Virus record (IMG/VR): IMGVR_UViG_3300044210_000049
Location: 1-48,884 of that record
DNA length: 48,884 nt
From: a virus
Lineage: Duplodnaviria; Caudoviricetes
Reading direction: 5' to 3' (one strand)
Part shown: positions 1-48,806 of the stretch, piece after piece
Layout: every line of letters starts with the position of its first letter
Position numbering within the stretch: the first letter of the stretch is position 1
Program-made: the position numbers and the translations under genes
The notes under the pieces: generated by a model
Seen by the model: the letters and a program-made list of their open reading frames with translations, nothing else
Database searches by the model: none
What the model was told of the DNA's origin: nothing

Positions 1-127
1 GTATGCCCGCGCCTATGCTTTCCCGCATTTTGTCATACGGTTGTTAGAGGCTGTAACCGTGCGCTCTCCTGATTCTGCGCGGAAATTTTACCAGCCACTA
101 AACGGATCAACTTTTCCAAGGTGTTCT
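1..127. repeat. Terminal direct repeat, copy 1 (circular assembly overlap)
   Basis: Identical to 48758-48884; cuts through a cassette and the ORF 33..368. Confidence 0.95.
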
Positions 128-368
128 TAGGACTATTTTCACCAGGGCCATTTTCAGCAATCATACATTCTTCGACCTCCGGATTTTCGTCAGGGTCAGC
201 ACCTTCCGGATAAGAATAAAAGACAACTTTTGAATAATCATGAGGCATACATTCACAAGTTAATACTTGCCCTTTTGACAGTTCGACAACTTCGTCAGAA
301 AGCTCAACTGATGTTTCTTCTTTGCTGCCATGTGGATGAACGAACTGAATTAACTTGACTATACCCAC
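33..368 (-). CDS. Cassette A hypothetical protein
   Basis: 111 aa ORF, GTG start with AGGAGG RBS, stop falls inside the attC-like site. Confidence 0.8.
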   Translation of the reverse strand: MGIVKLIQFVHPHGSKEETSVELSDEVVELSKGQVLTCECMPHDYSKVVFYSYPEGADPDENPEVEECMIAENGPGENSPKNTLEKLIRLVAGKISAQNQESARLQPLTTV

Positions 369-420
369 TGCTACCTCCTTTATTTTTCCGCGCCTATTTA
401 TATGGCCGCACGGTTATTGC

Positions 421-566
421 CTCTAACGTTTCACAAAGCGCGAAGTTGCCGCGCCCACCTTGATACAACAGAAAGATTCATTGGAGCACTGCCGTTTTTG
501 ACGGTGACAATCTCACGCTCCATGGCTGCGGCAATTTGGGCGATAGCCGCGCTTTGTGTGTTGGCT
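421..566 (-). other. attC-like site of cassette B (long, with coding loop)
   Basis: ctctAAC-gttt-cacaaagcgcg ... cgcgctttgtg-t-GTTggct. Confidence 0.8.
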
Positions 567-778
567 GACGTTTTGCCAGCTACAATAATTTTCTTTCGGC
601 TGGCGATTTTGTGAAGCTCCAATGTAGCAACGGCGGCGGCCTTGTAACACACACGCTGAAGCACCTTGTCGTCAGGACGGCACGTTTTGCGGAACGCATC
701 ACCCATATCATCCCAAACCGCCTCCTCCACCGTTACGAAAAACTCAGGATACCGTTTGCGAACATCTGATACTCTCAT
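431..778 (-). CDS. Cassette B hypothetical protein, C-terminus encoded in the attC loop
   Basis: 115 aa ORF with GAGGAGG RBS. Confidence 0.8.
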   Translation of the reverse strand: MRVSDVRKRYPEFFVTVEEAVWDDMGDAFRKTCRPDDKVLQRVCYKAAAVATLELHKIASRKKIIVAGKTSANTQSAAIAQIAAAMEREIVTVKNGSAPMNLSVVSRWARQLRAL

Positions 779-837
779 CTTTTCCTCCTCGCCAGCCGAA
801 CTATAAATTCAAAGCTGGCAAAATGTGTGAAACGAAC

Positions 838-985
838 AGCCAACGGTTGACCAATGGCGACGTTACCGCCCTATATTATGCCACGCACAGAACACGGATG
901 TAGGTTCTGCATCGTCGTAACAACCAGTGATGAGGCATCTGGGCGGTAATGTGGCTTCAGCCCCTGCGCCATTGGTTTGTTGTGG
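838..985 (-). other. attC-like site of cassette C (long, with coding loop)
   Basis: agccAAC-ggttg-accaatggcg ... cgccattggt-tt-GTTgtgg. Confidence 0.8.
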
Positions 986-1072
986 GATGTGCTGCGCTGA
1001 CTCCTTAGTGTCCTGCGCGGCCTCTCCCATATCGAGAATAACGTCACGATCATCCTCACAATATTCGTCCAT
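863..1072 (-). CDS. Cassette C small protein with Cys/His tail
   Basis: 69 aa, GGAGG RBS; tail CLITGC...FCAWH lies in the attC loop. Confidence 0.7.
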   Translation of the reverse strand: MDEYCEDDRDVILDMGEAAQDTKESAQHIPQQTNGAGAEATLPPRCLITGCYDDAEPTSVFCAWHNIGR

Positions 1073-1128
1073 GATGAACCTCCGATTTAAGTGCCGTGCC
1101 TATCTGTAAAGACTCAGCGCAGCATTTC

Positions 1129-1190
1129 GTACAACGTTTCACGCACGTGCGATGCGCGGCTTTGCGCGTTTTGCACTGCGTGTGTTGTGC
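1129..1190 (-). other. attC-like site of cassette D
   Basis: gtacAAC-gttt-cacgcacgtgc ... gcactgcgtg-t-GTTgtgc. Confidence 0.85.
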
Positions 1191-1390
1191 GATGATTTTG
1201 CCACCTCCACGTTTTCAGATGGCGGCATTGGTAGTGACACCACCGTATACCCTTCGTCAGTTACAATACTCATAAAGCCAAAATCAAAGCGATACCCTAC
1301 CGTAAATAGAGGGTGTTCCGATACAACAACGCGCATGGCTTTGTTATACGGCGAACTTTCTGGAACCCACTGAACTACTATTGTCTTCAT
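1139..1390 (-). CDS. Cassette D hypothetical protein
   Basis: 83 aa, AGGAGG RBS. Confidence 0.8.
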   Translation of the reverse strand: MKTIVVQWVPESSPYNKAMRVVVSEHPLFTVGYRFDFGFMSIVTDEGYTVVSLPMPPSENVEVAKSSHNTRSAKRAKPRIARA

Positions 1391-1426
1391 GCCGCCCTCC
1401 TATAAATTCAAAGTGGCAAAATTTTC

Positions 1427-1501
1427 GCACAACGTGTTAGTATGGTGCTGTGGTACAACCGCATTGATGCCTAACCCATTGCATCCATACGGTTGTTGGT
1501 G
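1427..1501 (-). other. attC-like site of cassette E
   Basis: gcacAAC-gtgtta-gtatggtgc ... gcatccatac-ggtt-GTTggtg; 1436-1498 is identical to 48015-48077. Confidence 0.85.
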
Positions 1502-1538
1502 GCCTGTAAATCAAGCCTCCATAATTTCCTCCCAGGCG

Positions 1539-1901
1539 TTAAAACTGCCCCTCACCGAAACGGTCACCCCGATCATCGTCATAATCGTATTGTCTTGCGG
1601 CGGTAAATTCCGCATCTTCCAGCGCCTTGACTGTACCTTTTTGACGAGATGTCCAGTCGTCGGGAGAAAGTTTTTTTATTTCTTCAACTTCCATTCGAAG
1701 CGAAGGAAGCGAGCACTCGGCATTACTTCGTTTAGCGGCTTCGGACTTTGCAATCTTGTACTGCCGTACCGCTTCGTCTGCAAGGCGCTGCGCGGCCTTC
1801 CGCATTTCGTTTACCGCCGCCGGGGTTGATGCTTCGTTGGAGAGAGATACTTCAAAATGGCAGTAATCGAACGATAACATTATTTTTACGCTTGCACTCA
1901 T
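1539..1901 (-). CDS. Cassette E hypothetical protein (first cassette)
   Basis: 120 aa ORF with AAGGA RBS. Confidence 0.8.
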   Translation of the reverse strand: MSASVKIMLSFDYCHFEVSLSNEASTPAAVNEMRKAAQRLADEAVRQYKIAKSEAAKRSNAECSLPSLRMEVEEIKKLSPDDWTSRQKGTVKALEDAEFTAARQYDYDDDRGDRFGEGQF

Positions 1902-1956
1902 AGAATTTTCCTTTTGTGGTCGCCTGGGCTATTTATACCCAAGCTTGGTTTATGGA

Positions 1957-1991
1957 CACCAACTATTATTGTATGAAATAGCTAATTCAAG
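1957..1991 (-). other. Candidate attI-like primary insertion site
   Basis: caccAAC core closes the arm of cassette E and is followed by tattatt-gtatg (like the AAC-N6-gtatg half-site of the A, E, G and J sites), with no palindromic partner; the array ends here. Confidence 0.5.
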
Positions 1992-9431: not shown

Positions 9432-9869
9432 TCATTGTTTGTCCTTAGAACGAAGTAGAGTTATTCGATCATTAATCTGTTTACTCATATTATCAATACA
9501 CCGTTCAAATTGATTAATTCCTGCCGGCAAATCGATACTTTCCAGGAAAGCAATTTCTTCGCTGTGGTTGGCAGGTGGCTTTTGATCTTCCGCCGTTTTT
9601 AGCGAGCATTCTTTACAAAGCTCCTTCATGAATCCTATATTTCCGTTAGGCCAAGGATGACTGGAAATTGGGTTACGATTTCCCATTGGGTTACGATTTC
9701 CCATATCGTAATTTAATTCCGCATCATAGAAAGTTTTTTCACCACAATCATCGCTTTGATCTTCCACAATTTTTGACGCAATTTTTTCTTTCAGTTGTTT
9801 CCAAGTAGAAATATCCATTGCGTCACCGAATTGATATACTAACGACTCGATATGCTCTAAATGTGTCAT
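9432..9869 (-). CDS. Hypothetical protein with a cassette-derived C-terminus
   Basis: 145 aa; tail EEIAFLE...QINDRITLLRS resembles cassette O tail DEIAWLE...KINDRIAQLRA. Confidence 0.75.
   Translation of the reverse strand: MTHLEHIESLVYQFGDAMDISTWKQLKEKIASKIVEDQSDDCGEKTFYDAELNYDMGNRNPMGNRNPISSHPWPNGNIGFMKELCKECSLKTAEDQKPPANHSEEIAFLESIDLPAGINQFERCIDNMSKQINDRITLLRSKDKQ
9669..9704. repeat. 18 bp tandem duplication (MGNRNP x2)
   Basis: tgggttacgatttcccat twice, in frame. Confidence 0.85.
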
Positions 9870-9953: not shown

Positions 9954-10259
9954 TCAATACTGGTTCGGCCGGTGGTTAATATTTATTCCCCCGGACCCGT
10001 CCCCGTACCCGGCTCCGGACCCGTCCCCGTCCCCGTCCCCGTCCCCGGACCCGTCCCCGGACCCGGCCCCGTCCCCGGACCCGGCCCCGTACCCGGACCC
10101 GTCCCCGTACCCGGACCCGTCCCCGGACCCGGCCCCGTACCCGGACCCGTACCCGGACCCGGACCCGTCCCCGGACCCGGCCCCGTACCCGGACCCGTAC
10201 CCGGACCCGGCCCCGTCCCCGTCCCAGGATATAATAATATTTTCTTTTATGATCTCCAT
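9954..10259 (-). CDS. Gly-rich G(D/S/Y/A) repeat protein
   Basis: 6 bp-unit low-complexity tract at ~9990-10225; commonly paired with the upstream gene in phages. Confidence 0.75.
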
Positions 10260-10537
10260 TCCGGGACCGCCTTAATAGAAGCAATAGCAGTTTTTGTGCA
10301 TGGAATTATTTCTATTGCCTCGGTTAACTTTATTGATGGTATTGTAACTGAAAATTTGCATTCGTTTGGACATTTTACTCCACACAAAGCAAGTTCTGAC
10401 AATGAAGCCGCTCCTTTCCAATACCAAATGCGCCGAGTGTTTTTTAAAATAACTTCTTTACATTTTTGAGATACTAATGTTCCTGAATGTACCCCGGCTG
10501 AATAAGTTCTTACAATTACATACTCTGATTTTTTCAC
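10247..10537 (-). CDS. DUF6948-like phage protein
   Basis: [14 protein letters not shown]...[16 protein letters not shown]. Confidence 0.85.
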
Positions 10538-11270: not shown

Positions 11271-13229
11271 TTACTCCTTTGCCGCCGCCGCGTCGAGTTC
11301 GGCGTTTAATTTTTGGTCGGAAGATATTTTTTTTAATGGTTTTTTAACAAGCGTAGCCATTATTGATTCGTAATTTTTTTCCGGGATATCGGTAAGAACT
11401 TTTATTGTTTCGTCTTTTAAAAGACCACGATAAAACTTTAAAATAGAATCAACGCTTGCGCCTTCTCGTTTTGCAATTTCCTCTAAAATGTTAGAAGTTT
11501 GATTGGTAGAAATTAAAAGCACGTCGGAGTTTTTAGGTTCTTTTTCTTCGGTAATGTTAATGACTTTATTTTCAAGGAAAAGAATATCTTCCTTGTCCTC
11601 TCTGACTTCCGGAAGTTCGAGCATGCTTTTTGTCGGATCAATAAGGGCAAATTTTTGTAAATCGGAAAGAGGGAAATCCATATTGATATGCAGAATATAG
11701 TGTTTCGATTTTTTCCCTTCGTAAGTAATTTCTTGCTCTCTGCGCTCCAATTTTAACGGGATCATGTGAACGCGACCGCAAATAGCCTTGATATATTCAA
11801 GGCAAGAATTTATGTTTACAATAGAATGAAATGAACCGGTAACTATTTCCCATACGCCAGCCCCTTTTAATTCCGGCAAAAGGATAGAAAGCGCTGCGGA
11901 TTCTGAGCATTTTTTTTGCTGATAAAATGGACAATCCTGTCCTTTGCAATTTACTCGTACTCCTCCCATTTCGGATGCCCCAAGCACTTCGAGGCTGGCC
12001 GCATGCTCTTGTGATATACATACTGCTTCTATCCCATCTCCCTTGCAGCGCAATACTCCATTAGCGTATCGTTTGTAAAATTGAGGAAAGAAAATAGACG
12101 GGTCTGGAAGCGGGAACATTATTCGAATCTGTTTGGGTTTTTCCCCGTATAGTTTTTCGTATTCTGAAATAAGGTTTTTGTTTTCCAACTCGGAAGGTGT
12201 TTTCGGATCAAGTTTGAAATAGTCTATTTCTGCCGGATATTCAACTCCTTTCGATGAAACTTTTTTAATTCCAAGGCGAATTTTTCCAAGCCTCGGAAGC
12301 CTTCTTATTTCCGACAATCCTTTAATCATTTCTTCCTCGCTTTGTTTTTGAGTTTTTAAATATTTTCCATAAGAACAAAATTCAGCAACCGCGCAAAAGC
12401 GCGCGCATTTAAGTCCTTCCCAGTTTTCGAGTCTATCACAGGTCGGAGGCGCGGTCATAGTTTTTAAAGCGCTTAAAAGGGCTTCCCGCTTCATTTTGAA
12501 ATAATCCAATACTTCTTGATCCGTAATAATTTTCAAGTTGAAGTAATAAACGTTTCTGAAAATTCCCCGGCTTCTCGCAATGAATGTTCCTCCATCCCGA
12601 ACGCAACATTGTATTTTCAGGTGATTTATTTTTTTCCCTAAACGTTTTTCCGCTTCGATTCGATATTTATTTAATTGCAGTTCCCATTCCCATCGGTCTT
12701 CATATTTTTGATCTCTGACAAGCTCTTTTATGGTTTTCTTCTCACCTTTTCGCTTTCCGCTTTTAAAAACTTCATCGGTTTCTTTTTCGATGACTTTAAA
12801 ACCGAGTGCCTTGGCAACTTTGTAGGAGCCGGAAGTTTTGTAGTCGATCATGTCAATTTGGCCATTTTCGATCTCTATCACATCGGAAATTCCGGTTTCA
12901 TCGGTGTCGTCTCCGTCGAATTTTTCTTCGAGAAAAGAGAGTTCATCTTCCGAACCTTCCAAAACAGCATGACCTTTTGTACCATGTAACATAAAAGCTC
13001 GGGAATCCGGACTTATAGAATATTCTTTTGTTAAGATTAAGAATGCTTCGAGTGTCCCGCGTATTAATTGGGTAGTAGATGGCTTTCCGGTCCATATTCT
13101 TTCTCTCGAAGCGAGTCTCAAATAGGAGCGAGTCGCGCAACGTTCACCCATTCGGCAGCCGCCCTCTTTCAAGCAGTCGTCTATTTCTATTTTATCGTTG
13201 TCTGGACATATAAAATATTTTAATGGCAT
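11271..13229 (-). CDS. Fusion: Cas4-like PD-(D/E)XK nuclease plus Gp3-like (recombination directionality factor family) domain
   Basis: N-half has GISD...IDYKTSG, QLNKY and a Cys cluster (CARFCAVAEFC); C-half has RRLPRLGKIRLG...CKGDG...GVWEIVTGSFHS. Confidence 0.75.
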   Translation of the reverse strand: MPLKYFICPDNDKIEIDDCLKEGGCRMGERCATRSYLRLASRERIWTGKPSTTQLIRGTLEAFLILTKEYSISPDSRAFMLHGTKGHAVLEGSEDELSFLEEKFDGDDTDETGISDVIEIENGQIDMIDYKTSGSYKVAKALGFKVIEKETDEVFKSGKRKGEKKTIKELVRDQKYEDRWEWELQLNKYRIEAEKRLGKKINHLKIQCCVRDGGTFIARSRGIFRNVYYFNLKIITDQEVLDYFKMKREALLSALKTMTAPPTCDRLENWEGLKCARFCAVAEFCSYGKYLKTQKQSEEEMIKGLSEIRRLPRLGKIRLGIKKVSSKGVEYPAEIDYFKLDPKTPSELENKNLISEYEKLYGEKPKQIRIMFPLPDPSIFFPQFYKRYANGVLRCKGDGIEAVCISQEHAASLEVLGASEMGGVRVNCKGQDCPFYQQKKCSESAALSILLPELKGAGVWEIVTGSFHSIVNINSCLEYIKAICGRVHMIPLKLERREQEITYEGKKSKHYILHINMDFPLSDLQKFALIDPTKSMLELPEVREDKEDILFLENKVINITEEKEPKNSDVLLISTNQTSNILEEIAKREGASVDSILKFYRGLLKDETIKVLTDIPEKNYESIMATLVKKPLKKISSDQKLNAELDAAAAKE

Positions 13230-44797: not shown

Positions 44798-44848
44798 CGA
44801 TGCAACGATGCAAATAACCGGTCCTCCGGTTAATTTGCGTTGTTGGTC
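44792..44848 (-). other. Terminal attC-like hairpin, possibly also a convergent terminator
   Basis: ttctAAC..caacgatgcaaataaccgg-tcct-ccggttaatttgcgtt-GTTggtc, where the two transcription directions meet. Confidence 0.55.
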
Positions 44849-44964: not shown

Positions 44965-45210
44965 TTATTTTACTTTCGGCCATGGTGATTCGCCTTTAGG
45001 CTTAATTAATGAATATCCATCATCATCACTATGGCACTCACAAATATTAACACTATATTTATACGCAATCTTTTTGCACTTGTTTTTACGCTTATTTGAA
45101 TAATAACTGCAACCATTATTAACGCATATTTCCATCGGTCCCGATATTTTTGTGGCTATTGTTTGCTGGTTTTGCGGATTCAATTTATTACGCATAGCAT
45201 TTTCTTCCAT
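44965..45210 (-). CDS. Cys-rich hypothetical protein in the degenerate array tail
   Basis: 81 aa; crosses a degenerate site near 45120-45170. Confidence 0.55.
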   Translation of the reverse strand: MEENAMRNKLNPQNQQTIATKISGPMEICVNNGCSYYSNKRKNKCKKIAYKYSVNICECHSDDDGYSLIKPKGESPWPKVK

Positions 45211-45365
45211 TCTATTATTAAAAATGGTGAAGGCTTCCTACAGTTTACAACCCTACACATTGCGCAGGATTTCTCGTTTTTTACTGCACGGATCCCGGTG
45301 AGATCACGGGCCTGTGTAGACCGCGTTTCATTGATTACATCCATATAAAAGCCTTCACCATGTCC

Positions 45366-45519
45366 AGCCAAAGTTCACCGCATTGCGCGAAGTTGCGCTA
45401 TTCGATCATTTATCTTTTGTTTAATAAAAAAATATGAGTTACGGGTATTATTACAATTGACATCGGTGTCTTTTAGTACCGTTTCCAGCCAAGCAATTTC
45501 GTCGCTGCGGTTGTTATGC
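45366..45519 (-). other. attC-like site of cassette O (core mutated AAC to AAA)
   Basis: agccAAA-gttc-accgcattgcgcgaagttgc ... gcaatttcgtcgctgcggt-t-GTTatgc. Confidence 0.7.
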
Positions 45520-45635
45520 GAATGTTTTGACGCATCCGCAATGTTCCTTGAAAATGGATTCTCAAATGTTTTTGGAGAAACCCAAACTTCATTATCCGGT
45601 ACAAGGCTATTTGCTATCAAAAACTTCTCATCCAT
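45375..45635 (-). CDS. Cassette O protein
   Basis: MDEKFLIA start with GGAG RBS; tail lies in the attC loop. Confidence 0.75.
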   Translation of the reverse strand: MDEKFLIANSLVPDNEVWVSPKTFENPFSRNIADASKHSHNNRSDEIAWLETVLKDTDVNCNNTRNSYFFIKQKINDRIAQLRAMR

Positions 45636-45668
45636 TTTCAACTCCAATATAAGAGCGGTAAAACTTTT

Positions 45669-45723
45669 GTATAACTGATCGCAAATTGGCGGTCGTTTTA
45701 ATGCTACACTTTCGCTGTTATAC
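45669..45723 (-). other. attC-like site of cassette N
   Basis: gtatAAC...GTTatac, 55 bp, weak inner stem. Confidence 0.65.
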
Positions 45724-45859
45724 GAAGTTTGTCGGTCTTCCTTAATTTACTGCCACCAATGAATTTACATTTTTTAAATTTACACTTAGTATGAAAAACT
45801 CCGGCACCAACTGAAATAAGATTTATGTACTTGCAAAAAAAACATTTTCTTATTTTCAC
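45704..45859 (-). CDS. Cassette N small Cys-rich basic protein
   Basis: GTG start after AAGGA; CFFC...CKFKKC. Confidence 0.6.
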   Translation of the reverse strand: MKIRKCFFCKYINLISVGAGVFHTKCKFKKCKFIGGSKLRKTDKLRITAKV

Positions 45860-45899
45860 TTTTATTCCTTTAGGCGGCCTATAATAACGTGCTTTTGAC

Positions 45900-45978
45900 C
45901 GCCAACGTATTGCGGTACGCATGAAGTAAAGTACGACTGCATACCGCTTACCTTTATTTTATGCTGCCGCTGTTAAAT
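45900..45978 (-). other. attC-like site of cassette M
   Basis: cgccAAC-gtatt-gcggtacgcatgaagtaaag ... ctttattttatgctgccgc-t-GTTaaat. Confidence 0.8.
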
Positions 45979-46204
45979 GCTGTTTAGGCAACATCCTTTT
46001 ATCTGCGGGCGGACCGTAACAAATGTTTATTGCTTTAATAAGACAATTAACGCAAAGATCGCCACCATTTATGATTCCGTTTGTTCCTGACATAATCTCA
46101 AAATTTACACCAGTATTTTCTACCATGGGACAGCCACGCAAGCGATTCGATGTTACCGATTTTTCTACTTCGCTCCCGCAAGCGTCGCAATAATGTTTAA
46201 TCAT
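45959..46204 (-). CDS. Cassette M zinc-finger-like protein
   Basis: YCDACG...DLCVNC, AAGGAG RBS. Confidence 0.8.
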   Translation of the reverse strand: MIKHYCDACGSEVEKSVTSNRLRGCPMVENTGVNFEIMSGTNGIINGGDLCVNCLIKAINICYGPPADKRMLPKQHLTAAA

Positions 46205-46249
46205 TTTAAGCTCCTTGCCGCCCGCCTATTTATATGGTCGAAGCGGCAT

Positions 46250-46412
46250 TGAAAACGTTTGATAAATGGAGAAGTGCGCGGCGGTTCCGTAGTGCGCTTC
46301 GTGCTGATTAACAGCACTTCCCGGCTATACACGGTACCATAATTCCGGTATGCAATTGCCGCGCATTTTGCTTCACCATTCATTTATGCTGCCAGACATT
46401 TATTTGTTAGAT
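46250..46412 (-). other. attC-like site of cassette L (long)
   Basis: tgaaAAC-gtttg-ataaatg..gtgcgcggc ... gccgcgcat...catttat-tt-GTTagat. Confidence 0.7.
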
Positions 46413-46492
46413 GCCGTTGAAAAGGGCTTCCATAATGTAAGCGCACGCCTTGCGACGGCCACCGATCTCACTGAAGCGCATACGCGGTTCAT
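46400..46492 (-). CDS. Cassette L 30 aa peptide (or non-coding cassette)
   Basis: GAGGAtaATG; MNRVCASVRSVAVARRALTLWKPFSTASNK. Confidence 0.35.
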   Translation of the reverse strand: MNRVCASVRSVAVARRALTLWKPFSTASNK

Positions 46493-46554
46493 TATCCTCG
46501 ATAGTTCTGACTTTATGGAAGCGCCTACTAACATAAAAGCCCTTTTCTATGGCA

Positions 46555-46695
46555 TTATAACGCCCGACAAAGGGCGAAGTTATTTCGATTTGTAACATTC
46601 AGGCTTACAGTTTTTTATATAGTCAATACAGTTAAAACAACGATTAGCACATGTTTCACGGGACGGAATAATTTCTCCCCTTTGCTCTGTTGTAG
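46555..46695 (-). other. attC-like site of cassette K (long, with coding loop)
   Basis: ttatAAC-gcccga-caaagggcgaagtta ... taatttctcccctttg-ctct-GTTgtag. Confidence 0.8.
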
Positions 46696-46876
46696 GTGCT
46701 ACACCCTCCAGAGTACGCCCCGCTGTTTCTGGTTGCGTTTCCAAAGTCTTTGCGGCTCGATTTTCCAACCACAAAACATACTTTAATGTGTGCCACGTAA
46801 GACCTTCCAATTGGTAAACTACATCTTCGCCAGTTTCGGTTTTATACAGTGTCATCAGTTTGTAATTTAGAGACAT
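46580..46876 (-). CDS. Cassette K protein with Cys-rich tail
   Basis: 98 aa. Confidence 0.75.
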   Translation of the reverse strand: MSLNYKLMTLYKTETGEDVVYQLEGLTWHTLKYVLWLENRAAKTLETQPETAGRTLEGVAPTTEQRGEIIPSRETCANRCFNCIDYIKNCKPECYKSK

Positions 46877-46919
46877 TCGAGCCGCCTATTTAATAATGGT
46901 TTTCGCAACCAGAAATTTA

Positions 46920-46996
46920 CTACAACGGGAAAGTATGTTGCTGTTTGGTACAACCGCATATCTACTTTCCCAAATGGAAACATACGGTTGTTGTGA
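46920..46996 (-). other. attC-like site of cassette J
   Basis: ctacAAC-gggaaa-gtatgtt..tttgg ... ccaaa..aacatac-ggtt-GTTgtga. Confidence 0.85.
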
Positions 46997-47033
46997 ACTG
47001 TAAACGCGCTTCCGCATTATGCTTTCGGCGCAT

Positions 47034-47165
47034 TTACTTTTTGTTGCTGCCGGGCTTGGTAAAACCGCGTCCCCCCAATTCTTTATCATTTTCTACCGCA
47101 CGGCGATAACCTTCTTGACGGGCTTCAAGACGCTTCTTTGATTTTGAAAGTTTGTTTCTGCTCAT
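47034..47165 (-). CDS. Cassette J 43 aa basic peptide (not in the ORF track)
   Basis: AAGGAG RBS; MSRNKLSKSKKRLEARQEGYRRAVENDKELGGRGFTKPGSNKK. Confidence 0.75.
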   Translation of the reverse strand: MSRNKLSKSKKRLEARQEGYRRAVENDKELGGRGFTKPGSNKK

Positions 47166-47217
47166 TTGATAACTCCTTTATGCGCCGAACTATTAAATTC
47201 AAAAGCGCGTTTATGGT

Positions 47218-47287
47218 TTATAACGTCCGACAAATGGAGAAGTTCCGCCTCGGAATTTAGCCTTGCGGCTCCATTTGTTTGTTAGGC
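47218..47287 (-). other. attC-like site of cassette I
   Basis: ttatAAC-gtccg-acaaatggag ... ctccatttgt-tt-GTTaggc. Confidence 0.85.
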
Positions 47288-47634
47288 GCTGAATTGACTG
47301 CTTCCACATTTCCCGCCGCTCCTTGTTTGAATATTGACGAAAGCATATTTATTTCACGGTCGTGAAGTTTTTTTATTTCTGCCTGCAAATCGTAAAAGTC
47401 CATTTTGGGGAGCCGGATTTTCTCGATACGATACCCAACGAGAGCAAGAAACGGTAACAAAACATCCATTGTAAAAATATGCTGGCTTACCCAGCTATGC
47501 CCGGCCATTTCTTTCATGCCAGCGCAATCCCTTTGCCACTCCCAAAGCAACTTAAAAAAATCCTTTGCATCATGGAAGTCTTTAAGAAAATCCGGCACTT
47601 GTTTCTCGTCATGAAGATATTGCTTAATGTCCAT
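47257..47634 (-). CDS. Cassette I hypothetical protein
   Basis: 125 aa, PDFLKDFHDAKDFFK motif. Confidence 0.8.
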   Translation of the reverse strand: MDIKQYLHDEKQVPDFLKDFHDAKDFFKLLWEWQRDCAGMKEMAGHSWVSQHIFTMDVLLPFLALVGYRIEKIRLPKMDFYDLQAEIKKLHDREINMLSSIFKQGAAGNVEAVNSAPNKQMEPQG

Positions 47635-47685
47635 AAGTAATTTTTTCCTGGCGCGGCCTACTCACATAAAAGCAGGCAATTTTGC

Positions 47686-47755
47686 GCATAACTTTGACCA
47701 AGTGCGAAGTGCTGTACTCAGCATTTAGGCTTCCGGCGCACTTGGTTTGTTGTTT
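47686..47755 (-). other. attC-like site of cassette H
   Basis: gcatAAC-tttg-accaagtgcg ... cgcacttggt-tt-GTTgttt. Confidence 0.85.
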
Positions 47756-47956
47756 TTAGTTGCTCGCCTTCCTTAATTCTCTGGCGGGCGTTATTTTTGC
47801 GACGGCTTCCACATTGACCTTGCGAATAAGATCATACTCTCCGACAAGGCGCTTTTCATCCAGAGTACATGCGTCAAAAGCTGATGGATGGGCGACCAAA
47901 TACTTTGTGTCGCCGTCCATTTCCTCGTATACGAAAATCTTTTTTGGTAAACTCAC
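47756..47956 (-). CDS. Cassette H hypothetical protein
   Basis: 66 aa, GTG start, AAGGAG RBS. Confidence 0.75.
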   Translation of the reverse strand: MSLPKKIFVYEEMDGDTKYLVAHPSAFDACTLDEKRLVGEYDLIRKVNVEAVAKITPARELRKASN

Positions 47957-48005
47957 TTTATTCTCCTTTTGTTATGCCCGCCCTATAAATTAAAAGGCGA
48001 GCAAT

Positions 48006-48080
48006 TGAAAACGGGTTAGTATGGTGCTGTGGTACAACCGCATTGATGCCTAACCCATTGCATCCATACGGTTGTTGTTT
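48006..48080 (-). other. attC-like site of cassette G
   Basis: Near-identical to the cassette E site at 1427-1501. Confidence 0.85.
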
Positions 48081-48329
48081 TTAGTTTGCCGGGCTTCCTT
48101 GATTTGCTTCCAGCGCGCTTAATACCCAAACGCGATAGCCCTTTTCTTCTTTACGTGTAGCCAATTTAAAGCCATATTTTCGCACGTTTCCGCAAACACT
48201 GTTCATTTCTTTTCTGCTACTAAAAAGGATAGAGTCCCCCGCAGTCATAGTTTTAAATGTTGGCATATACATCCCGTGGTTCCGAGGGGGAGGGATCGGA
48301 ACGCCCTTTTCGACAACTAAATTAGACAT
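48081..48329 (-). CDS. Cassette G hypothetical protein
   Basis: MSNLVVEKGVPIPP...MTAGDS...YRVW; AAAGG RBS. Confidence 0.8.
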   Translation of the reverse strand: MSNLVVEKGVPIPPPRNHGMYMPTFKTMTAGDSILFSSRKEMNSVCGNVRKYGFKLATRKEEKGYRVWVLSALEANQGSPAN

Positions 48330-48383
48330 AAGAACCTTTCTTTTGCGCCGGACTATCCATTCAACAGCCCGGCAAATTGAATA

Positions 48384-48513
48384 CAACAACGTCCGCGCTA
48401 TTGCGCTGCCCGCACATACCCCTTGCACTGCAACATAGTTACATAGCACTCTCCGTCGTTCGCACAGGTATCACAGTCGCGCTGTTCGGGTGGCGTGATA
48501 GCGCGTGTTGTGT
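48384..48513 (-). other. attC-like site of cassette F (long, with coding loop)
   Basis: caacAAC-gtc-cgcgctattgcgctgccc ... gggtggcgtgatagcgcg-t-GTTgtgt. Confidence 0.85.
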
Positions 48514-48688
48514 GCTGTTCCGGTTTTGCTTCCACAGCTCCCAGAGCGGCGTTATTTGTTATGGCAACCAAATCCACTTTAACACCGCCGGGGACATTGC
48601 CAAAACTATTACCATGCATAATTTCCTTTGGAACACTAAACGTCAACGTACATTCCTCGAAATCGAACGAGTGCATTTTTAATTTCAT
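48398..48688 (-). CDS. Cassette F protein with Cys-rich tail
   Basis: 96 aa, AGGAG RBS. Confidence 0.8.
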   Translation of the reverse strand: MKLKMHSFDFEECTLTFSVPKEIMHGNSFGNVPGGVKVDLVAITNNAALGAVEAKPEQHTTRAITPPEQRDCDTCANDGECYVTMLQCKGYVRAAQ

Positions 48689-48729
48689 ACGCCGCTCCTA
48701 TAATAAAATGTTTTCAAAACCGGAATTGC

Positions 48730-48806
48730 AACCAACGGAGAAGTATGGCGAAGTGCGGTATGCCCGCGCCTATGCTTTCCCGCATTTTGTCATACGGTTG
48801 TTAGAG
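48730..48806 (-). other. attC-like site of cassette A (spans the circular join)
   Basis: aaccAAC-ggagaa-gtatggcgaagtgcgg ... ccgcattttgtcatac-ggtt-GTTagag. Confidence 0.85.

Follow-up and report, generated by a model that had tools for sequence, protein, structure and literature searches.

The window, by which we mean the whole 48,884-nt stretch of DNA analysed here, is a phage record that is complete and circular, has a terminal repeat of 127 nt, and encodes terminase, portal, capsid and tape-measure proteins. Its minus strand carries 16 one-gene units, from about position 1963 across the genome join to about 44,800. All 16 follow one plan, with a GTT start, an AAC end and an attC-like hairpin coming next, and are called cassettes c1 to c16 below. 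We designated the minus strand as the top strand, following the integron convention. "Armed" denotes a cassette whose two ends (the 5' and 3' arms) pair with each other across the gene. The letters A, B, D and F are those of a preliminary description of this DNA.

1964..1990, minus: array head, putatively attI-like; a short palindrome (1969-1990), then A|GTT
1495..1963, minus: c1, first in the array, armed
1434..1494, minus: attC-like hairpin of c1, 99% identical to the hairpin of the unrelated c7 (48013-48073)
1389..1433, minus: 5' arm of c2 (cassette D); helix I at 1433-1425 (from the GTT core), AA loop at 1424-1423, helix II at 1422-1413, an A/T-rich bubble with TAG at its end at 1412-1400, helix III at 1399-1389
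1139..1390, minus: c2 gene, 83 aa
1184..1228, minus: 3' arm of c2, all of it within the reading frame; helix I' at 1184-1192 with AAC at its end, loop at 1193-1194, helix II' at 1195-1204, bubble at 1205-1217 and helix III' at 1218-1228
1136..1183, minus: attC-like hairpin of c2, inner part from AAC to the next GTT, non-canonical geometry
979..1135, minus: c3, armed; hairpin 845-978
560..844, minus: c4 (cassette B), armed, with an insertion of about 10 nt in the 5' arm; hairpin 428-559
43..427, minus: c5 (cassette A), armed; hairpin crosses the genome join (42 to 48737)
48507..48736, minus: c6 (cassette F), armed; hairpin 48388-48506
48074..48387, minus: c7, armed, GTT duplicated at the start
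47749..48012, minus: c8, armed, 5' arm short by three bases; hairpin 47693-47748
47281..47692, minus: c9, armed; hairpin 47225-47280
46990..47224, minus: c10, armed; hairpin 46927-46989
46689..46926, minus: c11, armed, with an insertion of about 30 nt between helices I' and II'; hairpin 46562-46688
46406..46561, minus: c12, with intact helices I and II and a weak helix III; hairpin 46257-46405
45205..46256, minus: distal c13 to c16; c15 (45513-45675) armed, c13, c14 and c16 partly decayed
44799..44844, minus: last attC-like hairpin, where the array meets a converging plus-strand gene; the matching 5' arm was not identified

No tyrosine recombinase or integrase was found by Pfam or PHROGs among the 66 proteins of the window. 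Six-frame searches with PF00589 gave no match in the window and ten phage records of its family (defined below; five of the ten are at least 90% complete), IntI gave no match across 70 family loci, and Rfam gave none for a known RNA family. The array head reads A|GTT, as opposed to C|GTT after the internal hairpins, and shares 13 nt with the head of one related array (L124). Heads in phages and hosts are mostly A|GTT and are occupied by cassettes that are internal elsewhere; no known attI sequence was matched. A gene for a 71-aa protein (1992-2207, minus), whose product we presume from its appearance to resemble a small DNA-binding protein, lies directly before the head palindrome, and host heads also have a hairpin before the first GTT. 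An A/T-rich motif, perhaps an accessory binding site, lies about 25-45 nt before the first GTT in the heads of L001, L090, L124, L146 and L147, and is weakly present in the window.

Several irregularities were seen in and beyond the array. Three-base core slips occur at 48387-48390, 48012 and 46256, with an extra GTT in c7 and three bases missing from c8 and c13, and adjoin hairpins that open with repeated AAC. Insertions of about 11-30 nt between helices I' and II' recur in unrelated cassettes (46689-46730 in the window; L086, L115, L118, L120 and L001), and the insert is nearly the same in L115, L118 and L120. Far from the array, the phage gene at 9435-9869 (minus) ends in a decayed c15 3' arm and hairpin and encodes a similar C-terminal tail; it is possibly a former cassette fixed as an ordinary gene. 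The repeats at 9451-9570 had been considered as an active site and were rejected, being this decayed cassette tail. About 310 nt of tandem 12/18-nt repeats lie inside small overlapping reading frames at 9959-10270. A 652-aa protein (11271-13229, minus) carries a Gp3-like domain of the 'recombination directionality factor' kind, in a phage that has no integrase, and a distant relative of it is encoded near the array of a prophage-like contig (L249).

Arm pairing in the window and its family

The preliminary description had claimed that c2 is enclosed by inverted arms of about 45 bp and that the other cassettes are built alike. When positions 1184-1228 were compared with the reverse complement of 1389-1433, 34 of the 45 positions matched, laid out as 9 bp, a 2-nt loop, 10 bp, a 13-nt bubble and 11 bp with one mismatch. 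These arms are the longest and first-listed inverted repeat of the window, and the 250-nt c2 fold has a z-score of -4.6 as DNA and -4.7 as RNA. Arms are likewise present in cassettes A (43-427), B (560-844) and F (48507-48736). With the 7-nt core omitted, the own 3' arm scored best in 14 of the 16 cassettes (permutation p < 5e-6), with a mean score of 25.6 for own arms as against 12.3. The exceptions are c13 and c14, both decayed, whose ends were placed approximately by hand; the 3' arm of c11 was shifted by hand past its insertion. An arm detector found eight armed pairs in the array, none in any of 100 dinucleotide shuffles, and none in the 42.5 kb of the window outside the array.

Family loci were retrieved from viral, metagenome and genome collections by hairpin and adjoining-core patterns, not by arm pairing. 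A hairpin finder gave 169 distinct cassettes on 71 locus-strands. We kept the 120 in which at least seven of the first nine bases match, ten of them from the window, and dropped 49 that probably span missed hairpins. The 120 cassettes share a common arm anatomy of 9 bp, a 2-nt loop, 10 bp, a bubble of about 14 nt and 7-11 bp. Own-arm pairing is 0.69-1.0 at positions 1-9, falls to 0.18 at position 10 and 0.09 at position 11, returns to 0.72-0.80 at positions 12-21, and passes through 0.47 at position 22 to about background from position 23. The core (positions 4-7) pairs at 0.82-0.98 in this set, which was pre-filtered for seven of nine; conserved GTT and AAC triplets and cores that are complementary within the cassette were found as in integron cassettes. 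Beyond the core, pairing exceeds the 95th percentile of non-cognate pairs in 106 cassettes and the 99th in 89, and a helix III of at least 7 bp is formed in 95 of 120, against 4.3% of non-cognate pairs. The loop is AA in 101 of 120, both bubble strands are mostly 12-15 nt long, and the 5' bubble terminates in a conserved TTRTAG-like motif.

That the stems differ between cassettes and yet stay paired, as the preliminary description had put it, was borne out: mutual information, uncorrected for phylogeny, is 0.4-1.7 bits at the paired columns of 108 dereplicated cassettes, except at position 8 (0.11 bits), while the 95th percentile of shuffled columns is at most 0.13 and slid controls reach at most 0.19. 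Between c1 and its homolog in L319, two compensatory changes are found in helix III. The frame helices vary freely in sequence between cassettes. Related armed cassettes of about 245 nt without a clear reading frame were seen in two loci (L014:4488 and L124:3757), and a full armed array (L092) lies on a 168-kb contig of a MAG labelled Thermoplasmatales, probably a misplaced phage contig.

Strand bias, folding and exchangeable parts

G-T pairs are unevenly distributed between the strands. The ratio of bottom-strand to top-strand pairs is 44:4 in helix I, 98:0 in the loop and 26:11 in helix II; the bubble has the opposite bias (top strand, 115:42) and helix III has no preference (18:12). Because of the top-strand bias of the bubble and the neutrality of helix III, the inner portion could function on the other strand or as RNA. 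A bottom-strand G-T bias is reported for attC sites in the accessible part of one study (PMC5027507). In the circle register, the bottom strand gives the more stable site in 85 of 95 cases (p = 5e-15); in the array register it does so in 53 of 95, which is not significant. The duplex energy of a 3' arm is -27.5 kcal/mol with its own 5' arm as opposed to -9.6 kcal/mol with that of the next cassette. Two structural proposals of the preliminary description agree with the predicted folds. Circular c2 is predicted to fold into a dumbbell on both strands, as proposed for an excised single strand. In the predicted fold of positions 840-1500, helices I and II of c2 form with P of 0.90-1.0, about 0.99 for both outer helices, and bring both crossover cores to one junction, while the array-register pairing of the cores, displaced by the arms, has a P of about 0.

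Comparisons between loci indicate which parts move. Among bodies of at least 90% identity, the downstream hairpin is kept in 7/7 pairs and the upstream neighbour differs in 4/7, two of which are a head versus an internal position. Thus, body and downstream hairpin behave as one unit, as in integron cassettes, and the boundary of the moving unit maps to GTT, not to an exact bond. Hairpins change on a slower scale: at 62-90% identity of the bodies, the hairpin differs in 6/6 pairs, and near-identical hairpin starts belong to unrelated bodies in 25 of 32 pairs. The c1 body occurs at 98% identity with another hairpin in a contig of sequencing run X2; it is also carried next to different hairpins in other phage DNA, and a more distant version exists as a free gene. 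In L123, c5 is present in a different array context.

The arms are also reused as a frame. The frame of c5 encloses 297 other bases in a contig of run X1, perhaps the run of the source sample, and in L001 the frame of c7 holds another gene and that of c9 an unrelated one. For a wider comparison, 162 cassettes found by their arms were used, a set selected for helix III, so that helix III pairing within it is not independent. At least 30 of 36 frame positions are identical in 37 pairs, against 0.25 expected, and 29 of the 37 enclose unrelated cargo (11 families and 31 cassettes; the pairs are not independent). Helix III differs in 24 of these 29 and is kept in six of seven pairs with related cargo. 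In the 11 closest pairs, the identical stretch reaches some five bases into the bubble on the 5' side and three on the 3' side; in a boundary profile of 155 loosely chosen pairs, swapped cargo was not clearly separated from random.

Homologs of the c1 and c2 genes exist without arms and with their own stop codons. Residues 1-56 of the c2 product match arm-less phage genes (67% identity to L003), and its remainder is read from the 3' arm and hairpin; the homology to free genes stops within helix III'. Among the matches listed for the family loci, none is a close free donor of cargo, and a donor search for c9 gave no match. Contigs of three sequencing runs held no excised circle and no joint lacking one cassette, which says nothing about their absence.

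Host arrays and a candidate recombinase

GTDB gave three matches: a phage-like contig in a Chitinivibrionales MAG, and two labelled Prevotella and Thermoplasmatales. The capsid protein was uninformative as to the host. The hairpin-arm junction, used as a profile, matched 24 of 81 Chitinivibrionales genomes, and its matches include a prophage-like array. The preliminary description had asked whether host chromosomal cassettes have the same arms, and they do: helix II is present in 13 of 13 complete Chitinivibrionales cassettes, and both inner helices (II and III) in 12 of 13, against 3.5% of non-cognate pairs. From the one MAG label and these armed chromosomal arrays, Chitinivibrionales is the probable host order.

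At two host loci, the first arm comes after the 3' end, now decayed, of a gene for a tyrosine recombinase; other host cassettes sit between genes that, from their translations, we take to be of housekeeping type. The recombinase fragment matched 36 of the 81 Chitinivibrionales genomes, the weakest hits including other recombinases. A co-oriented arm-start motif lies within 450 nt behind the recombinase gene at 21 of 30 loci, compared with one of 30 IntI genes, and eight of the nine recombinase loci without the motif have less than 450 nt of contig left. The spacing of the catalytic motifs is 58-59 aa in the 35 measurable of 36 host-enzyme proteins (some loci were fetched twice) and 99-100 aa in the 24 measurable of 30 IntI-locus proteins, and the alignment shows that the host enzyme is without about 41 aa of the IntI insertion region. 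One copy of the host enzyme was scanned with TIGR02249 and scored 169.7 bits, the cut-off being 265. A tree built from 40 proteins places 18 of 19 of these enzymes in one supported group, close to but apart from IntI, and the remaining one with Bacteroidota plasmid enzymes. The likely enzyme of the array is an insertion-less tyrosine recombinase and not IntI, a point that the preliminary description had missed. The recombinases at L246 and L259 were also considered as linked and were rejected, being located before IS91-like transposase genes. True IntI is found in 48 of 251 genomes of the phylum Fibrobacterota and could act on armed sites, so the link between enzyme and arms is one of neighbourhood.

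As controls, we used 18 cassettes beside true IntI (14 from one Gemmatirosa array, one from Thiodictyon and three of class 1). The preliminary description held that classical cassettes pair over only about 7 bp. This figure is too low, because continuous pairing is 9-12 bp in 16 of the 18 (4 and 7 bp in the other two), but the contrast with the long arms stands, helix II being present in 0 of 18. Six cassettes were found at Fibrobacterota IntI loci, none with long arms. These loci were also tried as a source of arms and rejected: the arm detector gave three hits across 563 kb of both strands, in two places that were inspected and judged to be non-cassettes. Canonical attC geometry (a 5/6-nt spacer, an L box and a single extrahelical L'' base) was found in 0 of 204 family hairpins, with none in the window, by a script of our own that recovers 18 sites in a classical control array; the commonest spacers of the family hairpins are 1/4 and 1/5.

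A short form of the arms exists in other phage arrays, in which the first four helix II bases are paired in 94 of 125 cassettes and at least eight of ten helix II positions in 20 of 125, as against 93 of 120 in the family of the window. Short-armed arrays are seen in many other phages (L005-L079), and in some of them the gene apparently faces against the hairpin. In two of three Bacteroidota plasmids (L322 and L323), the short form lies behind a related insertion-less recombinase.

Readings of the arms and comparison with known systems

The reading that we favour, with a probability of about 0.65, is that the arms are the outer half of an unusually long folded site of the host's insertion-less tyrosine recombinase and form a frame around unrelated genes. 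When the bottom strand is single-stranded, the arms of each cassette would pair, and its GTT core would adjoin the following one. The host enzyme, acting in trans on the phage, would exchange strands at G|TT and release a dumbbell circle. Helices I and II would provide the near-duplex binding surface needed by an enzyme without I2, comparable to XerC on the folded CTX site. In the accessible sections of Escudero et al. 2016 (PMC4792948), it is stated that extrahelical attC bases, held by the I2 domain, block the second strand exchange, and that XerCD, without I2, uses the CTX stem because it mimics a duplex. With the second exchange unblocked, an occasional hairpin swap would take place at the AAC side. 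The insertion-less enzyme, the missing canonical extra base, the near-duplex bottom-strand arms and the hairpin swaps together fit an I2-free, duplex-mimic model. A new cassette would be made when a foreign gene takes the place of the DNA inside the bubble, together with helix III, and another helix III forms or is selected. This entry of cargo is the weakest step of the model, and a chance inverted repeat selected among random replacements and templated copying both fit.

A possible but tentative extension regards the array as a sister system of integrons, with a domain-less recombinase and with exchangeable hairpin, frame and cargo, in which foreign DNA is inserted by a dedicated process at the bubble and helix III is templated from one captured end. 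The insertion point would lie just after the conserved TAG in one arm and about three bases past helix II in the other. The preliminary description had suggested either a new class of recombination site or a trace of how cassettes are created; both suggestions have gained support, and they are compatible.

The arms might instead be a passive scar, one end having been copied from the other at capture, with pairing that is idle in later recombination. Such copying agrees with the replacement of helix III as a block in both arms next to identical helices I and II (L108, L117, L118 and L127), with the decayed arms of the distal c13, c14 and c16, and with the changes between close frame pairs, 38 of which are double and keep pairing versus 28 single-sided (the pairs are non-independent). 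Blind copying, however, would erase the 2-nt loop, the frequent mismatch at position 8 and the bubble of about 14 nt, and would neither fix helix II at 10 bp nor give a G-T bias of one strand; the stepwise compensation between c1 and L319 also speaks against it, and we consider a scar unlikely. That the cassettes are ordinary attC cassettes mobilised by a host IntI in trans, the long arms merely stabilising the circle, is less likely again. The GTT/AAC cores, the single gene per cassette, an array in a phage without integrase, as in phage CALINs in the available part of PMC9892861, and the IntI genes in 48 of 251 genomes of the phylum would all suit this explanation. It is opposed by the 204 non-canonical hairpins, given that the same test did find the control sites, by the lack of helix II beside IntI (0 of 18, and six more without long arms), and by the chromosomal armed arrays, which sit behind the insertion-less enzyme.

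A role in RNA, in which the arms would control the translation or stability of the cassette by base-pairing the ribosome-binding region to the end of the same gene, is similarly improbable. Helix III of c2 (1399-1389) spans the ribosome-binding region and two bases of the start codon, and among 93 phage cassettes, 51 have a start codon that falls within helix III or borders it, and in 87 the reading frame extends into the 3' arm or beyond; the G-U bias of the bubble on the sense strand and the equally good fold of c2 as RNA point the same way. A fixed reading frame through the 3' arm was considered and rejected, since all three are used (31, 20 and 18). In the host cassettes, however, the arms are non-coding in 13 of 13, the longest reading frame starting at least 62 nt after GTT and ending at least 45 nt before AAC. 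Such reading frames lie wholly inside the arms, which argues against translation control as the main role, as do the preference of helix I and the loop for the antisense DNA strand and the start of the arms exactly at the crossover triplet. RNA control could be a secondary role of helix III.

The family offers natural before-and-after pairs, in which one frame holds different genes and cargo genes also occur free, and a candidate enzyme for cassette handling can be named. The origin of integron cassettes is stated as unknown in the available portions of three accounts (PMC4889954, PMC5371416 and PMC8618304), and the reuse of frames may reveal the way in which new ones are created. Should the enzyme work without I2, ssDNA cassette shuffling would be independent of the feature thought to define integrons; if true, the armed and short-armed arrays, including those of Bacteroidota plasmids and other phages, would be complete systems missed by IntI-based searches. 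If the array is a sister system of integrons, a route of cassette creation would be visible and testable, and lytic phages would turn their own genes into cassettes. In the literature covered, outside which lie older subscription papers on cassette ends, neither such arms nor the enzyme family were found described.

Three known systems resemble the array in part. The CTX phage attP/XerCD system, in the accessible text of PMC4792948, likewise has a phage using a host I2-free tyrosine recombinase on folded ssDNA that mimics a duplex, as we infer here. That system integrates a whole genome at one fixed dif-like sequence, whereas here single genes are bracketed by many variable sites, and the enzyme belongs to a family of its own beside IntI, distinct from XerC and XerD; the free sequence variation of the helices would also argue against dif-like XerC/XerD sequences. 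Treponema arrays also have a recombinase gene upstream of the array and co-oriented with it. The PeSL cassettes of T4-type phages, as far as the available part of PMC2839356 describes them, are stem-loop units between small genes, with modular shuffling and mini-circles. PeSLs are repeated promoter-terminator units that recombine with one another, whereas no such shared promoter and terminator sequence was found in positions 1-2500 (c1 to c5), with six promoter-like sites versus 4.5 expected and two terminator-like sites versus 2.8. Here, the ends are specific to each cassette, pair with each other over the gene and begin at a GTT core, and they are also seen next to a recombinase in bacterial arrays.

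The closest comparison is with integron cassettes and phage CALINs (Qi et al. 2023, PMC9892861; Cury et al. 2016, PMC4889954). As described in the accessible portions of these papers, the likeness comprises co-oriented one-gene cassettes, GTT...AAC cores, a hairpin per gene, a bottom-strand folding bias, a mobile unit of body and downstream hairpin, and a phage without integrase. CALINs are defined by a minimum of two attC sites, with no intI nearby; an array and the absence of intI are seen here, and the sites lack canonical attC geometry. Unlike integrons, the family of the window has cassettes whose own ends pair over about 45 nt in three helices, versus 4-12 bp, its hairpins are without the canonical 5/6 spacer or the single L'' extra base, the linked enzyme is without the IntI insertion, and hairpins and cargo are exchanged against the frame. 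We do not file the array as an integron, because canonical attC geometry and the IntI insertion, two defining features, were tested for and are absent. The array works like an integron cassette array but stands outside the class.
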